Shown one piece after another: positions 3,268 through 11,603 of a DNA stretch of 23,749 bases. The position numbers were made by a program, and so were the translations under genes. Origin of the DNA: Dehalococcoidia bacterium (GTDB lineage Bacteria; Chloroflexota; Dehalococcoidia; Lucifugimonadales; UBA3495); contig JASLXV010000012.1 of the NCBI GenBank assembly GCA_030740155.1, forward strand, positions 1 to 23,749, given 5' to 3'. Each line of letters begins with the position of its first letter. The first letter of the stretch is position 1. A model generated the notes under the pieces. The model worked only from the letters and a program-made list of their open reading frames with translations, did not search any database and was not told the origin of the DNA.

Positions 3268-4188
3268 CTAACTTCCGAACCGGGCCCCCGGCCGCAGGTC
3301 GATGCTCCCGGTCCATTCCGGCGCGGAGACCTTGCGCCCGCCTTCGGGTTGGACCCTGGCGATGAACACGGTCCCGCCCTTCACGGCCACGGCGAAGCCG
3401 GCGTCGGTGACCTCGGTTACCTCCCCAGGGCTCTTCCCGCTGTCGCCTTCCCGTTTTTCCGCCTTGTAGAACTGAACCGTCTTCCCACCAAGTGTGGTCC
3501 CGGCGCCGGGACTCGGATCACTCCCCCTGATCAGGTTGTAGATCTGGTCGACCGATCCGCTCCAGTCGATAATGACCTCCTGGGCGCCGCACCACCCCTC
3601 ATAGGTGGCCTGGTCCCCGTCTTGCACGATGCAGGGCGCCGTGCCGGCCTTGACCATCGCCACGGCTTCCGCCATCGCCTCGACGCCCATGGGAAAGAGC
3701 CTGCCGAAGTACACGGAACCGAGGGTGTCGTCGGGGCCGATCTCGATCTCTTTCTGAAGGAGCACCTCGCCGGTATCGAGGCCCGCGTCGGGCCAGAAGA
3801 TGGTGAGCCCCGTCTTCGTCTCGCCCTGGATGATGGGCCAGCTGATGGAGCTGGGGCCCCGGTGCTTCGGGAGCAAAGACGGATGGTACTGGATAGTCCC
3901 TTTCGTCGGCGCCGTCAGGATCGCATCGGGTACGATGTCAGTGACGAAGGCCATCACGCACAGGTCGGTGTTCAGGCCTACGAAGGCGTCGATGGCCGGC
4001 TGAGTTCGCATTCGGCGAAACTGAAACGTGGGGATGCCGTGAGTCTCGGCCGCCGCCTTGATCGGGTCCGGGGGCCGTCCCTCTCGGTCGGGGGGGCAGA
4101 ACACCCCGACGATGTCTTCTCCACCCTCGACCAGAGCGTTCAGGACGCTCTCGCCGAAAGCTGCCTGGCCAATCAGGGCAATGCGCAT
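3268..4188 (-). CDS. Fmt-fold formyltransferase, 10-formyltetrahydrofolate hydrolase (FDH-N)-like
   Basis: Motifs MRIALIGQAAFG, YHPSLLPKHRGPSSI and IFWPDAGLDTG, plus a C-terminal Fmt_C-like domain. RBS GGGAGG and extended -10 TGgTATATT at 4245-4253. Confidence 0.88.
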   Translation of the reverse strand: MRIALIGQAAFGESVLNALVEGGEDIVGVFCPPDREGRPPDPIKAAAETHGIPTFQFRRMRTQPAIDAFVGLNTDLCVMAFVTDIVPDAILTAPTKGTIQYHPSLLPKHRGPSSISWPIIQGETKTGLTIFWPDAGLDTGEVLLQKEIEIGPDDTLGSVYFGRLFPMGVEAMAEAVAMVKAGTAPCIVQDGDQATYEGWCGAQEVIIDWSGSVDQIYNLIRGSDPSPGAGTTLGGKTVQFYKAEKREGDSGKSPGEVTEVTDAGFAVAVKGGTVFIARVQPEGGRKVSAPEWTGSIDLRPGARFGS

Positions 4189-5495: not shown

Positions 5496-5758
5496 CAGCC
5501 GCGGCCGGGGTGAACCGGGGGCTTCGACCGCGCGGTGCGCCACGGCCCCATTAGATTTGGGTCTGACCCCCACGGTTGAACTGTGGTACATAGCTTGACA
5601 AAGTATTATCATGGTTAACATCAGAGGACGGATTAAGCAGCGTCCGGCCTGATTCTCAAGCAGCACGGGTGGTGTTCAATCGGTTGACGCCTCGCTGTGG
5701 GTCAGCCCCTTCCGCAATCGTCAAGCTTCTACATCCCGCTCGAATAAGGATTAGCCAC

Positions 5759-7045
5759 ATGACCAAGGAGGCAAAACGCCTCGGCATACTGGTGGGGGGC
5801 GGTCCGGCGCCGGGTATCAACAGCGCCATCGGCGCCGCTACTATCGAGGCGGTCAATTCCGGCCTCGAAGTTATTGGAATCCTTGACGGCTTCGAGCACC
5901 TGGCCGCTGGGCGGACCGACATGGTCGAGCGTCTGGTGATCAGCGCCGTGTCCCGCATTCACACCTCGGGCGGTTCCATCCTGCGCACCTCGCGGACCAA
6001 TCCCACCCGTAACCCGCAGGATCTCTGGCGGGCGCTTCAGGCTCTCCAGGACATGGGCATCAAATACCTGGTAACCATCGGTGGCGACGATACCGCCTTC
6101 GGCGCCGCGGAACTGGCCAGGGCCGCCCAGGGGGGCCTATGCGTGGCCCACGTGCCCAAGACGATCGACAATGACTTGCCGCTGCCCGGCGGCATGCCGA
6201 CTTTCGGCTTCGAGACCGCGCGGCACGTGGGTACCGAGGTAGTGCTGAGCCTGATGGAGGATTCCCGTACCACCAACCGCTGGTTCTTCGTGGTGGTGAT
6301 GGGGAGGGAAGCGGGCCACCTGGCCCTGGGGATCGGCAAGGCTGCTGGGGCGTCACTGGCCCTCATACCCGAGGAGTTTCCCCAAGAGCGCATCGGCCTG
6401 GACCTGGTTTGCAAGGTGCTGGAAGGGGCCATGCTCAAGCGCCGGGCAATGGGGCAGAAATACGGACTGGCGGTGATCGCGGAAGGGATCGCTGAAAAGC
6501 TGGACCCGGAAGAGTTGGCCCAAATTCCCGGAGTGGTCATCGAGCACGACTCCTATGGCCATCCCAACCTGAGCGAAATCCCCCTGGCGACGATCCTCCG
6601 GCGGGCGGTGCGGCAACGCTTTGCCGACCGTGGGGAGCGCTTGTCGATGGTGGAGGTGACCCTGGGCTACAACTTGCGGTGCGCCCCGCCTATTCCGTTT
6701 GACATCGACTACACCCGAACCCTGGGCTACGGCGCCGTCCGGTTCCTGCTGTCGGAACCAAAGGACGAAGAGCAACGCGATGGGGGTCTGATCTGCCTGC
6801 AAGACGGACACCTTCGGGTTGTCCCCTTTCAGGACCTGCGCGACCCTGAAACCGGCCGCACCCGGGTCCGCAAAGTGGACGTCGAATCGGAGCACTATGC
6901 CGTGGCTCGCAAGTACATGATCCGCTTGGAGCGCCGGGACCTGGAAAACCCTGAAATGCTCGGCAAGCTAGCGGGAGCCGCCAGCATATCCCCCGAGGCT
7001 TTCAGCCGGACCTTTGGGCCGGCGGCCGGTCTGCTACCCCCATAA
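5759..7045 (+). CDS. pfp: 6-phosphofructokinase family, probably pyrophosphate-dependent
   Basis: Motifs GGGPAPGIN, GGDD, PKTIDND, MGR and LGYNLRC. GGDD together with the Lys of PKTIDND is the established PPi-type signature. ATG 5759 follows AAGGA. Confidence 0.9.
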   Translation: MTKEAKRLGILVGGGPAPGINSAIGAATIEAVNSGLEVIGILDGFEHLAAGRTDMVERLVISAVSRIHTSGGSILRTSRTNPTRNPQDLWRALQALQDMGIKYLVTIGGDDTAFGAAELARAAQGGLCVAHVPKTIDNDLPLPGGMPTFGFETARHVGTEVVLSLMEDSRTTNRWFFVVVMGREAGHLALGIGKAAGASLALIPEEFPQERIGLDLVCKVLEGAMLKRRAMGQKYGLAVIAEGIAEKLDPEELAQIPGVVIEHDSYGHPNLSEIPLATILRRAVRQRFADRGERLSMVEVTLGYNLRCAPPIPFDIDYTRTLGYGAVRFLLSEPKDEEQRDGGLICLQDGHLRVVPFQDLRDPETGRTRVRKVDVESEHYAVARKYMIRLERRDLENPEMLGKLAGAASISPEAFSRTFGPAAGLLPP

Positions 7046-7318: not shown

Positions 7319-8107
7319 ATGCCCGTTTCCGGTAAAGTAGTCATCGTAACCGGCGCCAGCCGGGGGATCGGCAAGGCCGCCGCCGTGGGCTTGGCCCGCG
7401 AGGGCGCCAAGGTCGTCGTGGCCGCCCGCTCGGAGACCGAGCGCCCCGGTCTGCCCGGCACCATCCACGCCACCGTCGCGGAGATCGAGAGCTTCGGAGG
7501 CACCGCGCTGGCCGTCCGCTGCAACCTGCGAGAGGAAGCGGACATCACCGCCATGGTGCGGCAGACCATGGGCGCCTTTGGCCGCGTTGACGTGCTGGTG
7601 AACAACGCCGGCGTGGGCAACTACAAGTCCTTCCTGAAAACCAGCCTCAAAGAGTGGGACCTGGTTGTGGACATCGACCTGCGGGCCCCCTTCATCTGCT
7701 GCAAAGCGGTGGCGCCCATAATGGTCGATCAAGGAGGGGGCAGCATCATCAACGTGTCGTCCCAGGCCGCCAACAACATCTTTTCCTCCACCCGGGGGAT
7801 GGAGCCCGGCGTCCGCATCGAGATGATGGGCCAGGTCTATGGGACCGTCAAGGCGGGTCTGGAGCGGTTCACCTGGGGGCTGGCCACCGAGTTGGGGCGG
7901 TACAATATCGCGGTCAACGCGCTGAAGCCGATGCGGCCGGTGGTCACCGAGGGGTTTCTGGCCCAACGCCCCGACGCTGACTACTCCAGTTGGGTCACCC
8001 CGGAAGCCATGACCAAGGCGATCATTTTCCTCTCCCAGCAGGACGCCAACGGCCTCACTGGGACCAATGTCACCGACGAGGAGTTGGTCAAGAGGCACCG
8101 GCTGTAG
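7319..8107 (+). CDS. Short-chain dehydrogenase/reductase (SDR)
   Basis: Motifs TGASRGIG, NNAG, catalytic Ser (NVSS) and YGTVK. RBS GAGGTG. Confidence 0.93.
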   Translation: MPVSGKVVIVTGASRGIGKAAAVGLAREGAKVVVAARSETERPGLPGTIHATVAEIESFGGTALAVRCNLREEADITAMVRQTMGAFGRVDVLVNNAGVGNYKSFLKTSLKEWDLVVDIDLRAPFICCKAVAPIMVDQGGGSIINVSSQAANNIFSSTRGMEPGVRIEMMGQVYGTVKAGLERFTWGLATELGRYNIAVNALKPMRPVVTEGFLAQRPDADYSSWVTPEAMTKAIIFLSQQDANGLTGTNVTDEELVKRHRL

Positions 8108-8135
8108 TAAAAGAAGTCGCCGCGGATTGCACCGC

Positions 8136-8153
8136 ACGTCTGAATCCAGACGT
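8136..8153. terminator. Hairpin between convergent genes, possible terminator
   Basis: ACGTCTG-aatc-CAGACGT stem-loop. There is no adjacent long U-tract. Confidence 0.3.
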
Positions 8154-8214
8154 CCGCGCCCTCCGCGTTTTAGCAACAGGGACTGTAGAAGCCGATGTGC
8201 TCGGGGTGGCCCGG

Positions 8215-9045
8215 CTACACCTCCAGGGGCGTGTCTTCCATATTGGCCCACTCGCCCATGGAGCCATCGTAGTTCTTGGCCTCGCCGTAGCCGAGGAGCT
8301 TCAGGACCATCACACCGTGCGCCGCACGGATGCCGCCCTGTCAATAGGCGAAGATGTTCTTGTCCGGAGTAATGCCCTTCTCCGAAAGGATCCGCCGAAT
8401 CTCTTCCGGTGACTTGAACCGGTGGGTTTCCCGGTCCATGGTCTGCCACCAATCCAGGTGAACGGCCCCGGGCACGTGCCCGACCCGCTTGTTGCCTCGG
8501 CTGTTGGTGCCGTTCCACTCACCCGTGCTCCGGACGTCCCAGATCACCGCGCCATCAACGTTGCAGGCGGCCTTGATGTCGTCGACCCGAGCCATCATCG
8601 TGTCGTCGGCCTTGGGGGTGAACTTCACGCTGGAGTCGGGATGGGCCCTGTCGAAGCTGACGGCCCGGCCCTCGGTGACCCAACGCCGCCAACCGCCGTC
8701 CAGCACCTTGACGTTGCCGTGGCCGTGGGTCTTGAGCGCCCACCAGAACCGTGCGGAATAGTTGCTTTGGTTGTTGTCGTAGGCGATCACCAGGGTATCG
8801 TCGCCGATGCCCAGACCCTGGCACATGGCCGCGAACTGGCCGGGATTCATCAGGTGCACCCGTCCGGTGTCCGGGTTCTTCTCGTAGTTGTCGGGCACCA
8901 GCACCGCCCCGGGGATGTGGCCCCGGAGGAAAGCCGGCTCCACCTCGCAATCCACCACCACCAGATTGGAGTCGTCCTTGTGGGCTTCCACCCAAGCGGC
9001 ATCAACCAGGAATTCCGGATGGGCGAAACCTTCTCCCGTCGTCAT
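8215..9045 (-). CDS. Two-domain rhodanese / sulfurtransferase (SseA/TST-like), probable selenoprotein (276 aa, UGA=Sec at 8341-8343)
   Basis: Motifs GHIPGA, LDGGW, DVRS and GHVPGA, then ...IFAY-TGA-QGGIRAAHGVMVLKLLGYGEAKNYDGSMGEWANMEDTPLEV-TAG in one frame. The TGA sits at the catalytic Cys position, and the C-terminal signature YDGSxxEW lies beyond it. Confidence 0.88.
8302..8340 (-). promoter_or_regulatory. Candidate bacterial SECIS element
   Basis: Directly after the UGA the strand reads CAGGGC GG CATC CGTGC GGC GCACG GTGT GATG GTCCTG. CAGGGC/GTCCTG, CATC/GATG and CGTGC/GCACG can pair. A G-first apical loop begins 17 nt after the UGA. Confidence 0.7.
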
Positions 9046-9124
9046 GCTCCCTCCTGAAATGTCCGTAGCCTGGAGAACTGCCAGAAAAGCCGGCCGGGTT
9101 GCACTCGCCGGCTGGCGTCACTCA

Positions 9125-9153
9125 ATTGTAGGGTACGGCTTAGGCGGGGTCAA
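9125..9153 (-). promoter_or_regulatory. Sigma70 promoter of the sulfurtransferase gene, TTGACC-17-TACAAT
   Basis: Near-consensus boxes with a 17-nt spacer, 80 bp upstream of ATG 9045 (RBS AGGAGG). Confidence 0.7.
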
Positions 9154-9297: not shown

Positions 9298-9509
9298 CCT
9301 CGAACATGACTTGCTCCTTCTCGGTTGAGCGTTTAGGGCTGCAGCGCGGCAACAGCGCGATGCTACCAACTCGCGAGCACCTGCATATCCCGCAAAACCC
9401 CGCATAGGCTGTAGATAGGCTGGACTGGGCCGTAGAACGTAGACTAGAGATAGGATTTGGTGGACAAGCAGATACTTAGAGTCTCGCTAAACCAGCCACA
9501 GGAGACCAT

Positions 9510-9782
9510 ATGCAACCAGTAGGTATTGCCGAGAAAAGCGTTGAGCTGGGCCTAAGCCCGGATACGGTCAGGAGTGGGCTACGCACGGGCCAGATCATCG
9601 GCCACCAGGAAACCTTTGCCGGAGGGTTCGAACGGCTGGCGGAAGTCGACGAGGAGCCGATTTTCATAAAGATGCTAAAAGCCGAGCTGGAGCGCCTACA
9701 CGTGGGAATCAGCCAGCTTCACCAACTCCCAGCGCATAGACCGCCGCCACCAGCTCTCTCACGACGGCGGTCGTGGGCGTAG
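9510..9782 (+). CDS. Small helix-turn-helix (MerR/excisionase-like) plus coiled-coil protein, possibly degenerate
   Basis: RBS AGGAG. VGIAEKSVELGLSPDTVRSGLRTGQI resembles an HTH, followed by MLKAELERLHVGISQLHQL and a C-terminal RRRSW. Confidence 0.5.
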   Translation: MQPVGIAEKSVELGLSPDTVRSGLRTGQIIGHQETFAGGFERLAEVDEEPIFIKMLKAELERLHVGISQLHQLPAHRPPPPALSRRRSWA

Positions 9783-10199
9783 CAACCGTAGTCCCAGTCA
9801 GAGCAACACGGACCCCCGCGAGGCAGCTGGGGCTTTGCTCCAGAGCCCAAGATTTGTCCGGACTTTGACCGCGTAATAGAGAAGGCCGCCCAAGAGACAT
9901 GTATCCCTCGGACGGCGCCAGGTCGTCGGCTCACGGCTAGGTTCTCATCTGTCCACTCAAGCTTTGGTGGGAGGTCTACGTCGTGGTGACGAAAGAAATG
10001 GACCGAGTATTCGGTGAACGTAAATACCTCTTGTTATCCCAAGTGCGCGAGCTTAGCCGCACGTATGCGGTTGACGAGATAGCTGAGGCGGTCGAGCAGC
10101 TGTTCGACAGTCGGCGTTAGTGCATTTGGCAGCACCGGGTATCTATGTGAGCATGGAATATGTAGCGGGCATTTGCACTGCCACCGGTGTCTCCTGAGA

Positions 10200-10460
10200 G
10201 GCAGTCTTCGACGCCTGCATCGCAATCAGGGACAGATAGCAGTGGGGCGTAACCTTCCGTAGCCGCCGAACCGTGATGTGGTTCAGAGAGCGTCTTCCCT
10301 TCGGGCGTATTCCGGACACCGTAGCCGGTAAGTAGCTTCGGGTGTGTGGGGTTCAGGTTCACCACCGGGTGGGTACTGTATTGCCAGCGCACGAGCGAGA
10401 GGAACTTCCGGCCAGAATATCCCGCATCCGCCATAATCGAGGGCGCGACTTACCCCCGCC
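10200..10460 (-). pseudogene. Degraded DDE transposase (IS4/IS5/IS1182-like)
   Basis: MADAGYS at 10434 is the second-Asp motif. A shifted frame at about 10302-10212 reads KGRRSLNHITVRRLRKVTPHCYLSLIAMQA, resembling a transposase C-terminus. The Glu-bearing segment is missing. Confidence 0.6.
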
Positions 10461-10610
10461 TTGGCCACGGGGCCAGAGATTGGGGGGAATTCGAGCAGTA
10501 GCCGGCGCTCCGCCATCGGCAGTCAGGCCAAAGCCCAGCACTGGGTCAGGACCAGTGTGGCCTAGCCTCGCTTTGATGGTCGAGGCGGTGTCGCCCAAAC
10601 TGGCCGTTGA

Positions 10611-11603
10611 TCAGCGGCGGGCGGGGCTCTTGATGTTCACGTCGACCCAGTTGCTCTGTATGGTTGCCCGGGCCTCATCCTCGCCGATCCCGCTGGCGGC
10701 GGCGCAGGCGCTAGTCTCTTCCCAAATGGCGTCGGCGTCACCCATCATCAAGTACTTCTTGTGCTGGTCCTCGTGCTCGATGCCCAGGGCCCTTCCCACC
10801 AGAGTGAGGTAGTGCTCCACCTTTAGCGGATAGTCCATCTCGTAGCGGCACAGGCCCCGCTGGCAGCCGTGATAGAGCGTGCAGTAGACGTCAGCGTTGG
10901 CATCCACGGCGTCACGGAAGGTCTTGCCGAGGGTTTCTTCAAACCCGTCCTCGCCCAGGCTTGCCAGCAGCGCCGGGGTGCACTGGCGCCCCAGTTTCTT
11001 GTTGACACCCAAGTCCAGCGGGTTCACCCCGGGCAACGCGGAAAGGATCTGGATGACGCTGCGGGCCTCCGCATCCGACTGGGCGCTGCCAGTGTGGTAA
11101 TGTACGGCCACGTCCACCGCCGGTTGCGGCTGGAAGTCCAGCTTGTCCAGGTTCTCCACCAGGAACTCGGCAACGTGCTGGAAGAAAAACTCCTCCCGCA
11201 TCTCCATGATTTCGTCGTAGAACATGATGCACGAGGGGCACCACATCACCACCCGTTTCGGGCTGAACTTCATGAAGTTCCGGGCCGTGGCCGAGGCGAC
11301 GGAGTAAGCGGGTTTGGTGTCGCCCCTCCGGTGGTGCTGGATGCCGCAGCAGTAGGCCGCACCGGCCACTGCCACAAAGTCGACATTCAGCAGCTTGAAG
11401 ATGTCCATCACCGTGCGCACCAGATGGGTCGTCTTCAGCACGTTGCATCCCAGGAAGAGGACCACCTCGGCGGGCTTCACTTCGCCCTTGGGCGCGGCCA
11501 TCAGCCATTCCCGCTCCTCGGGCACCGACTGCAGGCCGTGGAGGACCGTCCCCTCCCTGAAATACTTCGCGTAAAATGATCTATCTTTATTCCCTTGGGA
11601 CAT
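10611..11603 (-). CDS. CCG-domain Fe-S protein (heterodisulfide reductase B / GlcF-related)
   Basis: FLGC...YCCG...WCPSC forms the first CCG motif. The second is degenerate (RQCT...YHGC). Confidence 0.8.
   Translation of the reverse strand: MSQGNKDRSFYAKYFREGTVLHGLQSVPEEREWLMAAPKGEVKPAEVVLFLGCNVLKTTHLVRTVMDIFKLLNVDFVAVAGAAYCCGIQHHRRGDTKPAYSVASATARNFMKFSPKRVVMWCPSCIMFYDEIMEMREEFFFQHVAEFLVENLDKLDFQPQPAVDVAVHYHTGSAQSDAEARSVIQILSALPGVNPLDLGVNKKLGRQCTPALLASLGEDGFEETLGKTFRDAVDANADVYCTLYHGCQRGLCRYEMDYPLKVEHYLTLVGRALGIEHEDQHKKYLMMGDADAIWEETSACAAASGIGEDEARATIQSNWVDVNIKSPARR

Follow-up and report, generated by a model that had tools for sequence, protein, structure and literature searches.

Rhodaneses with selenocysteine (Sec) at the active site have been catalogued as predicted selenoproteins since 2005, when a Sec-containing 'rhodanese-related sulfurtransferase' assigned to COG2897 was described from the Sargasso Sea on the basis of three sequences with a predicted SECIS element (PMC1088965); the initial annotation of the locus studied here had noted, rightly, that such selenoproteins were predicted from metagenomes. 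The family recurs in the GOS survey, in whose table cd01449 and COG2897 are entered separately (PMC2398784), and among the symbionts of Olavius, again as a Sec rhodanese-related sulfurtransferase (PMC1976440). A 2022 review lists the Sec rhodanese family as COG2897 (SseA) (PMC9312934), and in a 2026 review it appears as 'form 4', with a UxxG motif and one Sec, 'predicted with high confidence' and without experimental verification (PMC13188914). Among the papers listed by a literature search, with most subscription journals outside its coverage, none dealt with a native Sec rhodanese to judge by title and abstract opening.

We analysed a stretch of 23,749 nt (the window), in which a minus-strand gene encodes a tandem-domain rhodanese with an in-frame TGA. 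It resembles the published Sec rhodaneses (COG2897/form 4) in being of the SseA/TST tandem type, in its single Sec, in the UxxG motif (here UQGG), in the presence of a predicted downstream SECIS element and in its marine source; a PF00581/SseA-type protein with one Sec in UxxG is what the translation gives, with UQGG at a single TGA. The gene likely belongs to this published family, a placement made from family, motif and habitat and not from direct sequence comparison. The published representatives AACY01016424, MQG53192.1 and MCY3690685.1 were not among the members listed for 10 clusters. The available text of the 2026 review has no mention linking the Sec rhodanese family to SAR202 or Chloroflexota (PMC13188914), and a search of the literature, with most subscription journals outside its coverage, found no paper that pairs SAR202 with the term selenoprotein.

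Gene structure and expression signals

On the minus strand, a frame of 276 codons runs from ATG at 9045 to TAG at 8217-8215 and contains one internal stop on translation. This single in-frame TGA lies at 8343-8341 (codon 235, context AY-stop-QGGIRAA) and is followed by 41 sense codons, which include the C-terminal rhodanese signature YDGSMGEW (residues 259-266, 8271-8248). The ORF lister ends the gene at 8341, giving a product of 234 aa; translation confirms the earlier observation that the ORF track halts at TGA 8341-8343 and that the frame runs on for 41 codons to TAG. The full coding sequence (8215..9045, minus strand) is assigned from translation, Pfam, AlphaFold and Foldseek to a 276-aa tandem-domain rhodanese with a predicted Sec235 (P0001).

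A sigma-70-like promoter, TTGACC-17-TACAAT, is predicted at 9125..9153 on the minus strand (10/12 matches; one found versus 0.3 expected in shuffles), and an AGGAGG ribosome-binding site (RBS) lies 4 nt 5' of the ATG at 9050..9055 (minus strand). Resembling TTGAC...TACAAT sites can be seen by eye upstream of many orthologues, and the rhodanese gene likely has a promoter of its own. Promoter, RBS and both domains had been described as intact, and all were found, the domains as two Pfam PF00581 stretches. No terminator was found near the gene, and Rfam gave no match over the whole window. A GC-rich leader hairpin in the promoter-RBS interval was considered as an attenuator and rejected; by eye it is kept in the same-genus relative alone. 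In this genome (G000), TTGAC-N-N17-TACAAT occurs 28 times versus 37 for TACAAT and TATAAT together, so that TACAAT seems to be the favoured -10 hexamer of the organism.

Gene neighbourhoods were compared in 15 six-kb loci, which include two from a single MAG and several from genomes that are also in the relatives set described below. Recurrent neighbours are an SDR on the opposite strand (11/15), a divergent acetate-CoA ligase (9/15), a CCG-domain Fe-S protein on the same strand (8/15), an acyl-CoA dehydrogenase (7/15) and luciferase-like monooxygenases; because the loci overlap in genome origin, this recurrence is to be read as family-level synteny. No operon with a sulfur pathway was found among the neighbours in these 15 loci. 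In the window, the CCG-domain Fe-S protein, whose function is unassigned, is encoded at 10611-11603 (minus strand), upstream of the rhodanese and on its strand as in 8/15 loci; its gene stands immediately 5' of the rhodanese in some loci (e.g. L051, L076 and L077) and has no in-frame TGA. Between it and the rhodanese promoter is a 1.5-kb region of probable gene remnants (~9300-10600), in which a short ORF at 9510-9782 (plus strand) is 75% identical over 65 aa to a sequence in the same-genus relative only. Elsewhere in the window, ARAGORN calls a 96-nt tRNA-Gln at 4082-4177 (minus strand) within the 5' end of a formyltransferase gene (3268-4188), a call that is probably spurious since Rfam finds nothing there, and the phosphofructokinase at 5669-7045 (plus strand) exceeds the cut-off of NF041103, a model for PPi-dependent enzymes of the Thermotogales type.

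Protein fold and active-site loop

Pfam PF00581 matches the protein in two rhodanese stretches (E 3.5e-35). The best of these corresponds to the N-terminal domain (residues 16-124; 8674..9000, minus strand), which is predicted to be non-catalytic; the C-terminal catalytic domain occupies about residues 153-270 (8236..8589, minus strand), its approximate bounds being taken from the secondary structure of the model. An AlphaFold model computed with Cys in place of Sec from a 56-row alignment has a pLDDT of 96.3 and a pTM of 0.93, and Foldseek aligns it at a TM of 0.88 with both the top match, RhdA of A. vinelandii (1e0c), and the Thermus protein 1uar, at 30-35% identity. In the alignments to PDB rhodaneses, U was entered as C.

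The codon of interest falls on a conserved Cys of the homologues. Alignment with Cys-containing proteins, proposed in the initial annotation as a check, places the TGA on the catalytic Cys of the YCRI loop—YCRIAER in 1uar (Thermus), YCRIGER in 3hwi and 3aax (Mycobacterium)—and, in the catalytic domain, D170, R172, U/C235, R240, D260 and S262 are invariant. In the C-terminal signature, 3' of the TGA (8248..8271, minus strand), D260, S262 and W266 are invariant in 54/54 aligned rows, and the signature agrees with the ydgsw.ew/ey motif of PDB rhodaneses. At the probable N-terminal loop position stands Asp90 (51/54 aligned rows); by the Cys/Asp loop rule (PMC10135228) the N-terminal domain is for this reason predicted to be inactive, and thus structural. 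No further Cys is conserved, with C33, C75 and C161 each present in only 35-37 of 54 rows. The two domains, the C-terminal catalytic residue, the Cx4R/T loop, the DxR motif and the signature are those by which a tandem rhodanese is defined (PMC10135228), and the protein has them all; no sulfurtransferase model of NCBIfam reaches its cut-off with this protein.

The UQGGIR loop had been described as unusual, a view that does not survive comparison: it fits the common pattern CxxGxR, and CQGGIR occurs in Cys homologues. Among 150 profile matches, 136 cover column 235, and of these 90/136 have CxxGxR and 19/136 have CQ[GA]G[ILV]R; 13 of the remaining 14 end one residue before the column. In a quick tree of 111 rows, CQGGIR Cys forms are placed in the region occupied by the Sec forms and away from the CRIGER clade; Sec requires six changes on this tree, of which strongly supported branches force only one. 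Many genomes of the SAR202 order also hold a Cys paralogue of the CRIGER clade. In this genome the rhodanese is the sole match to its own protein at E<=0.001 (6 candidates scored). Six genomes of the family carry a tandem second Sec copy with a UQAGLR loop, ~55-60% identical to P0001 (L036, L038, L039, L040, L042 and L046).

Conservation of the in-frame TGA

The named relatives of the gene are SAR202 cluster bacteria and Dehalococcoidia, and the host organism is therefore likely a member of SAR202. We compared the gene across 61 genomes (its own and 60 relatives), taking matches at E<=1.5e-68 as the orthologue tier. There are 58 such matches in 50/61 genomes, 56 with one TGA and two without; the remaining 11 genomes have distant paralogues or nothing. 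Codon-level reading of 56 of the 58 (the gene itself included) gave TGA at column 235 in 54 and TGT in two, so that the codon is conserved in other organisms and is not private to the strain, a point that the initial annotation had asked to be checked. The TGA forms mostly end 40-45 codons past the TGA, with one at 52 and one, in a locus with masked bases, at 309. A phylum-wide draw of 301 genomes yielded more TGA forms, both elsewhere in the class and in two families that do not belong to it; two unpublished genomes of the draw, G241 and G222, contribute to this tally alone. In 80 metagenome loci the aligned codon is TGA in 13 and a Cys codon in 67. Relative to the same-genus orthologue, codons 246-276 have 6 synonymous and 3 non-synonymous differences (31 codons) and codons 1-234 have 50 and 26, respectively; by this comparison, the post-TGA tail is constrained equally to the gene body.

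Independent sequencing runs carry the same codon. At least half of the sampled words of the stretch are present in 16/24 listed sequencing runs, and the DNA runs among those 16 are all seawater or marine metagenomes. Contigs were compared for four runs from four studies, all of them free of any flag as a potential source of the sequence. Those of run X13 span 8100-9144 with zero differing letters, those of X14 and of the RNA-library run X15 span the TGA and are identical at the codon, and those of X17 stop short of it. A sequencing error, the other concern raised initially, is thus countered by contigs of three studies (X13, X14 and X15) with the same bases at the TGA. Contigs of the RNA libraries (X15 and X17; two studies) lie over parts of the gene, and such contigs show presence, not expression, strand or level.

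Truncation in databases

The best 120 database homologues are all 231-237 aa in length, and 119 of these 120 close with [T/A/S]Y and so stop immediately ahead of the TGA position; the expectation that pipelines would annotate the gene as truncated was therefore correct. These lengths are also what would be expected if the TGA were a true stop that leaves a pseudogene or a shortened protein, but gene callers treat TGA as a stop, which explains the short entries. A true stop would remove the catalytic residue, and it is difficult to reconcile with a TGA that is common across the order and beyond and with 41 downstream codons that are conserved and under purifying selection; assembly error is opposed by the agreement among the contigs of three studies. 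We regard a true stop or an assembly error as highly improbable.

A search with the C-terminal region found no full-length Sec-bearing record; its four matches are two truncated proteins and two Cys forms. Since the database copies end before the catalytic residue, surveys of SAR202 sulfur metabolism can misjudge the family, and the active-site peptide is absent from metaproteomic searches. The 13 profile matches that end just before the catalytic position are distinct representatives of 50%-identity clusters (P0273, P0278, P0279, P0281, P0286, P0287, P0290, P0325, P0328, P0340, P0362, P0363 and P0378) and are probably also truncated Sec genes, which suggests that more lineages of distant Sec rhodaneses are concealed in this way.

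Selenocysteine machinery and the genetic code

The assembly of this genome is 93.7% complete and 7.65% contaminated, and its sel genes are on contigs other than that of the rhodanese. A search of the genome for selA, selB, selD and tRNA-Sec, as had been recommended at the outset, found all four: selA (E 7e-134), selB (above cut-off), selD, which has its own in-frame TGA within a CAG-stop-AAK motif, and a tRNA-Sec with anticodon TCA. Matches to selA are present in 56/60 relatives and in 46/47 relatives with the TGA form; G020 is the sole TGA-form relative without one, and selB and selD are present there. In the Cys-form genome G051 (85% complete), none of selA, selB and selD was found. All three are present in the Cys-form genome G053, so the switch from Sec to Cys does not always come after loss of the machinery.

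A changed code in the organism, with TGA read as Trp or Gly, or a UGA read as Cys, would account for the open frame without Sec. ARAGORN called no tRNA-Trp in the assembly, as a changed code might have it, but such an absence is consistent with 93.7% completeness, and the sole TCA-anticodon tRNA called is the tRNA-Sec. TGA terminates 6/15 window genes checked, all 15 use TGG, internal TGA codons are absent from the remaining 14, and the residue aligned to the TGA is Cys, neither Trp nor Gly. We consider a changed code or Cys reading scarcely credible as the general explanation; as a minor route under selenium starvation, Cys-loaded tRNA(Sec) may act at the UGA.

The predicted SECIS hairpin

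The consensus bacterial SECIS has a loop of 3-9 nt with G in its first two positions, a stem of 4-16 bp, a spacing of 16-37 nt and an MFE <= -7.5 (PMC13188914). All of these limits accommodate the hairpin CCGUGC-GGC-GCACGG at 8329-8315 (minus strand), which has 6 bp, a GGC loop and a spacing of 17 nt from the UGA to that loop; the 50-nt segment after the UGA folds at -21.9 kcal/mol. From folding and comparison, this is the apical hairpin of a predicted bacterial SECIS (8302..8340, minus strand), set on a longer, variable lower stem. The hairpin alone is weak evidence. In single-sequence folding its stability is unremarkable against shuffles (z -0.6 to -1.7), a loose G-loop hairpin filter lets through 8801 of the 92814 TGA triplets of this genome (~9.5%), and RNAalifold on 54 post-UGA segments returned no consensus structure.

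The comparative signal is strong. A 5-bp core is intact in 56/66 TGA genes versus 0/45 Cys genes (0/13 among Cys genes with the CQ loop), and our own implementation of the published consensus model passes 65/66 TGA genes versus 7/45 Cys genes; in the metagenome loci the core is intact in 10/13 TGA versus 1/67 Cys genes. The codon for Arg240 is CGT in 49/54 orthologues versus 8.6% in long ORFs of the genome, and that for Ala242 is GCG in 51/51 versus 25%; judged by these frequencies, synonymous choice is frozen beneath the hairpin. Two stem pairs are altered on both sides (8 cells), G-C to U-A in five distinct sequences and C-G to G-C in three. The covariation score was reached by 0/500 shuffles and the count of both-side pair changes by 72/500, values that kinship inflates in both cases. 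The proposed pairing is 94.7% paired, versus 17-60% for slid pairings.

Ten TGA genes are without the core, and eight of them (L026, L031, L032, L048, L049, L074, L081 and L082) form one branch (support 89). There the spacing-17 hairpin is lost with His243 to Asn, and a new hairpin of 7-8 bp with a G-containing loop is found at spacing 24-25; the SECIS of this branch has apparently been relocated ~8 nt downstream. The hairpin of L082 looks intermediate between the spacing-17 and shifted forms, and the same shift is noted for L142-L144. In L041, L044, L050, L051, L056 and L069, a compensatory change of G-C to U-A accompanies Ala241 to Ser and His243 to Asn beside the active site, a both-side pair change by which RNA structure would drive amino-acid change. 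A Cys form (TGC) on metagenome contig Ga0101943_1000111 (L145) has an entire SECIS-like hairpin and is possibly a recent Sec-to-Cys reversion. The selD Sec codon of this genome (C32:19124-20044, L012) has no spacing-17 hairpin and its downstream fold differs, indicating that this genome has more than one type of SECIS. Scanning the whole genome for a TGA with a hairpin behind it was discarded as a selenoproteome list because it is too noisy; selD is missing among the strict matches shown.

A UGA that stands at the catalytic Cys in the majority of relatives, with a conserved hairpin behind it, is very likely Sec. Together with alignment, conservation and the independent contigs, this leads us to annotate the TGA at 8341..8343 (minus strand) as a predicted Sec235, and we judge it very likely from these comparisons that UGA235 is read as Sec. 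The Sec-dependent sulfurtransferase with UGA at the catalytic Cys, as initially proposed, is a reading on which the machinery, the conservation and the independent contigs all agree.

Proposed mechanism

In the mechanism that we propose, the hairpin 17 nt after the UGA would recruit SelB with its Sec-tRNA(Sec), and the product would be a protein of 276 aa whose loop U-Q-G-G-I-R holds Sec235. Catalysis would proceed by double displacement (ping-pong), as in other tandem rhodaneses: the selenolate would attack a sulfane donor to form an enzyme Se-S intermediate, and the sulfur would then be passed to a thiol, thioredoxin or sulfite acceptor. Sulfane-sulfur transfer through such an intermediate is, by analogy with these enzymes, the probable activity. 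As a nucleophile Sec is more reactive than Cys, and it is also the better leaving group. In the rhodanese fold the choice of substrate depends on the loop, and the CxxGxD/R loop of MOCS3 goes with weak thiosulfate activity (PMC10135228); for these reasons our best guess is a persulfide as donor and a thiol or thioredoxin as acceptor. Among donors, thiosulfate and the persulfides of small thiols or of proteins would be the most likely, ahead of 3-mercaptopyruvate. Purely as context, a response of TST genes to thiosulfate is described for a different Chloroflexota bacterium of the deep sea (PMC11005417). The role of the enzyme would be general sulfane-sulfur and redox housekeeping.

Sec could also be inserted into an enzyme that is mainly a redox catalyst, reducing polysulfides, disulfides, thiyl radicals or oxyanions, and not a sulfur carrier. 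The top structural match, RhdA, is a reported scavenger of glutathione thiyl radicals (PMC3458005), the 2026 review assigns likely redox functions to most uncharacterised selenoproteins (PMC13188914), and the weak thiosulfate activity that accompanies the MOCS3 loop points in the same direction (PMC10135228). The protein is, however, without a second conserved Cys (C33, C75 and C161 being variable, as noted above), and its six-residue loop has the length found in sulfurtransferases, not that of the Cx5R loop of phosphatases and arsenate reductases (PMC10135228). E-Se-S chemistry is common to redox turnover and sulfur transfer, so that the two readings overlap. A mainly redox role, the chief alternative, is in our estimate unlikely, and sulfur transfer is the reading that we prefer.

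The initial annotation had also offered a selenium transferase, for which no specific support emerged. A selenium carrier or transferase supplying SelD or detoxifying selenite would be in keeping with the description of rhodaneses as sulfur and selenium transporters (PMC9369223) and with the weak likeness of the protein to ExtH, which is encoded in operons for selenite/tellurite reduction (64 bits versus a cut-off of 200). Yet sel genes are absent from the recurrent neighbours annotated in the 15 six-kb loci and lie on other contigs in this genome, the Cys form persists in G051, where no sel genes were found, and a supplier of selenium that itself requires Sec is circular. We hold such a role to be very improbable.

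More speculatively, and with considerable doubt, the gene, which encodes the only tandem rhodanese found in this genome, could represent the ancestral selenium-dependent sulfane-sulfur enzyme of SAR202, with Se-S chemistry beyond that of Cys rhodaneses, e.g. fast thiol-driven turnover of polysulfides or persulfides. If this were true, a step of dark-ocean sulfur cycling would be tied to selenium supply, the enzyme would be hidden in omics surveys, with its active site missing from every database copy, and its natural Cys twins and the natural relocation of its SECIS would make it the first Sec rhodanese in which Sec and Cys could be compared directly.

Comparison with known systems

The solved Cys rhodaneses RhdA of A. 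vinelandii (1e0c), T. thermophilus rhodanese (1uar) and CysA2/CysA3/SseA of M. tuberculosis (3hwi, 3aax and 3hzu) have the same fold, with TM 0.87-0.89 (by query length) and an rmsd of ~2-3 A, and they are alike in the position of the catalytic residue and in the C-terminal signature. They differ in having Cys for Sec, in sequence (30-35% identity) and in the loop, which is CRIAER in 1uar and CRIGER in 3hwi and 3aax versus UQGGIR here. The 3-mercaptopyruvate sulfurtransferase SseA and the bovine and human TST share the two-domain architecture and, presumably, the ping-pong chemistry. The 3-MST model NF008557/PRK11493 scores 120.1 bits with our protein versus a cut-off of 250. The MST loop is CG[S/T]GVT, unlike the UQGGIR found here. 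The loop of bovine and human TST is CRKGVT (PMC10135228), which also differs from UQGGIR. Sec rhodanese form 3 (NF041203, with a CxU motif), a listed selenoprotein (PMC13188914), and ExtH (NF040901) have the rhodanese fold in common with our protein, which falls short of both models (31.6 versus 115 and 64 versus 200, respectively); the Sec motif of form 3 is CxU, versus UxxG here.

In the 2026 catalogue, Sec rhodanese forms are listed as predicted only (PMC13188914). Natural pairs of QGGIR-loop enzymes, with Sec and with Cys, offer a clean test of the contribution of selenium to sulfur transfer, and the sub-clade with the apparent 8-nt shift of its SECIS provides, on a modest scale, a natural test of SelB spacing. 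It is well supported that the rhodanese gene is real, and it is likely another member of an already predicted Sec family, not a new kind of system; to what is known of that family we add its prevalence across the order, a SECIS quantified against Cys controls, a branch with a relocated SECIS and the scale of truncation in databases.
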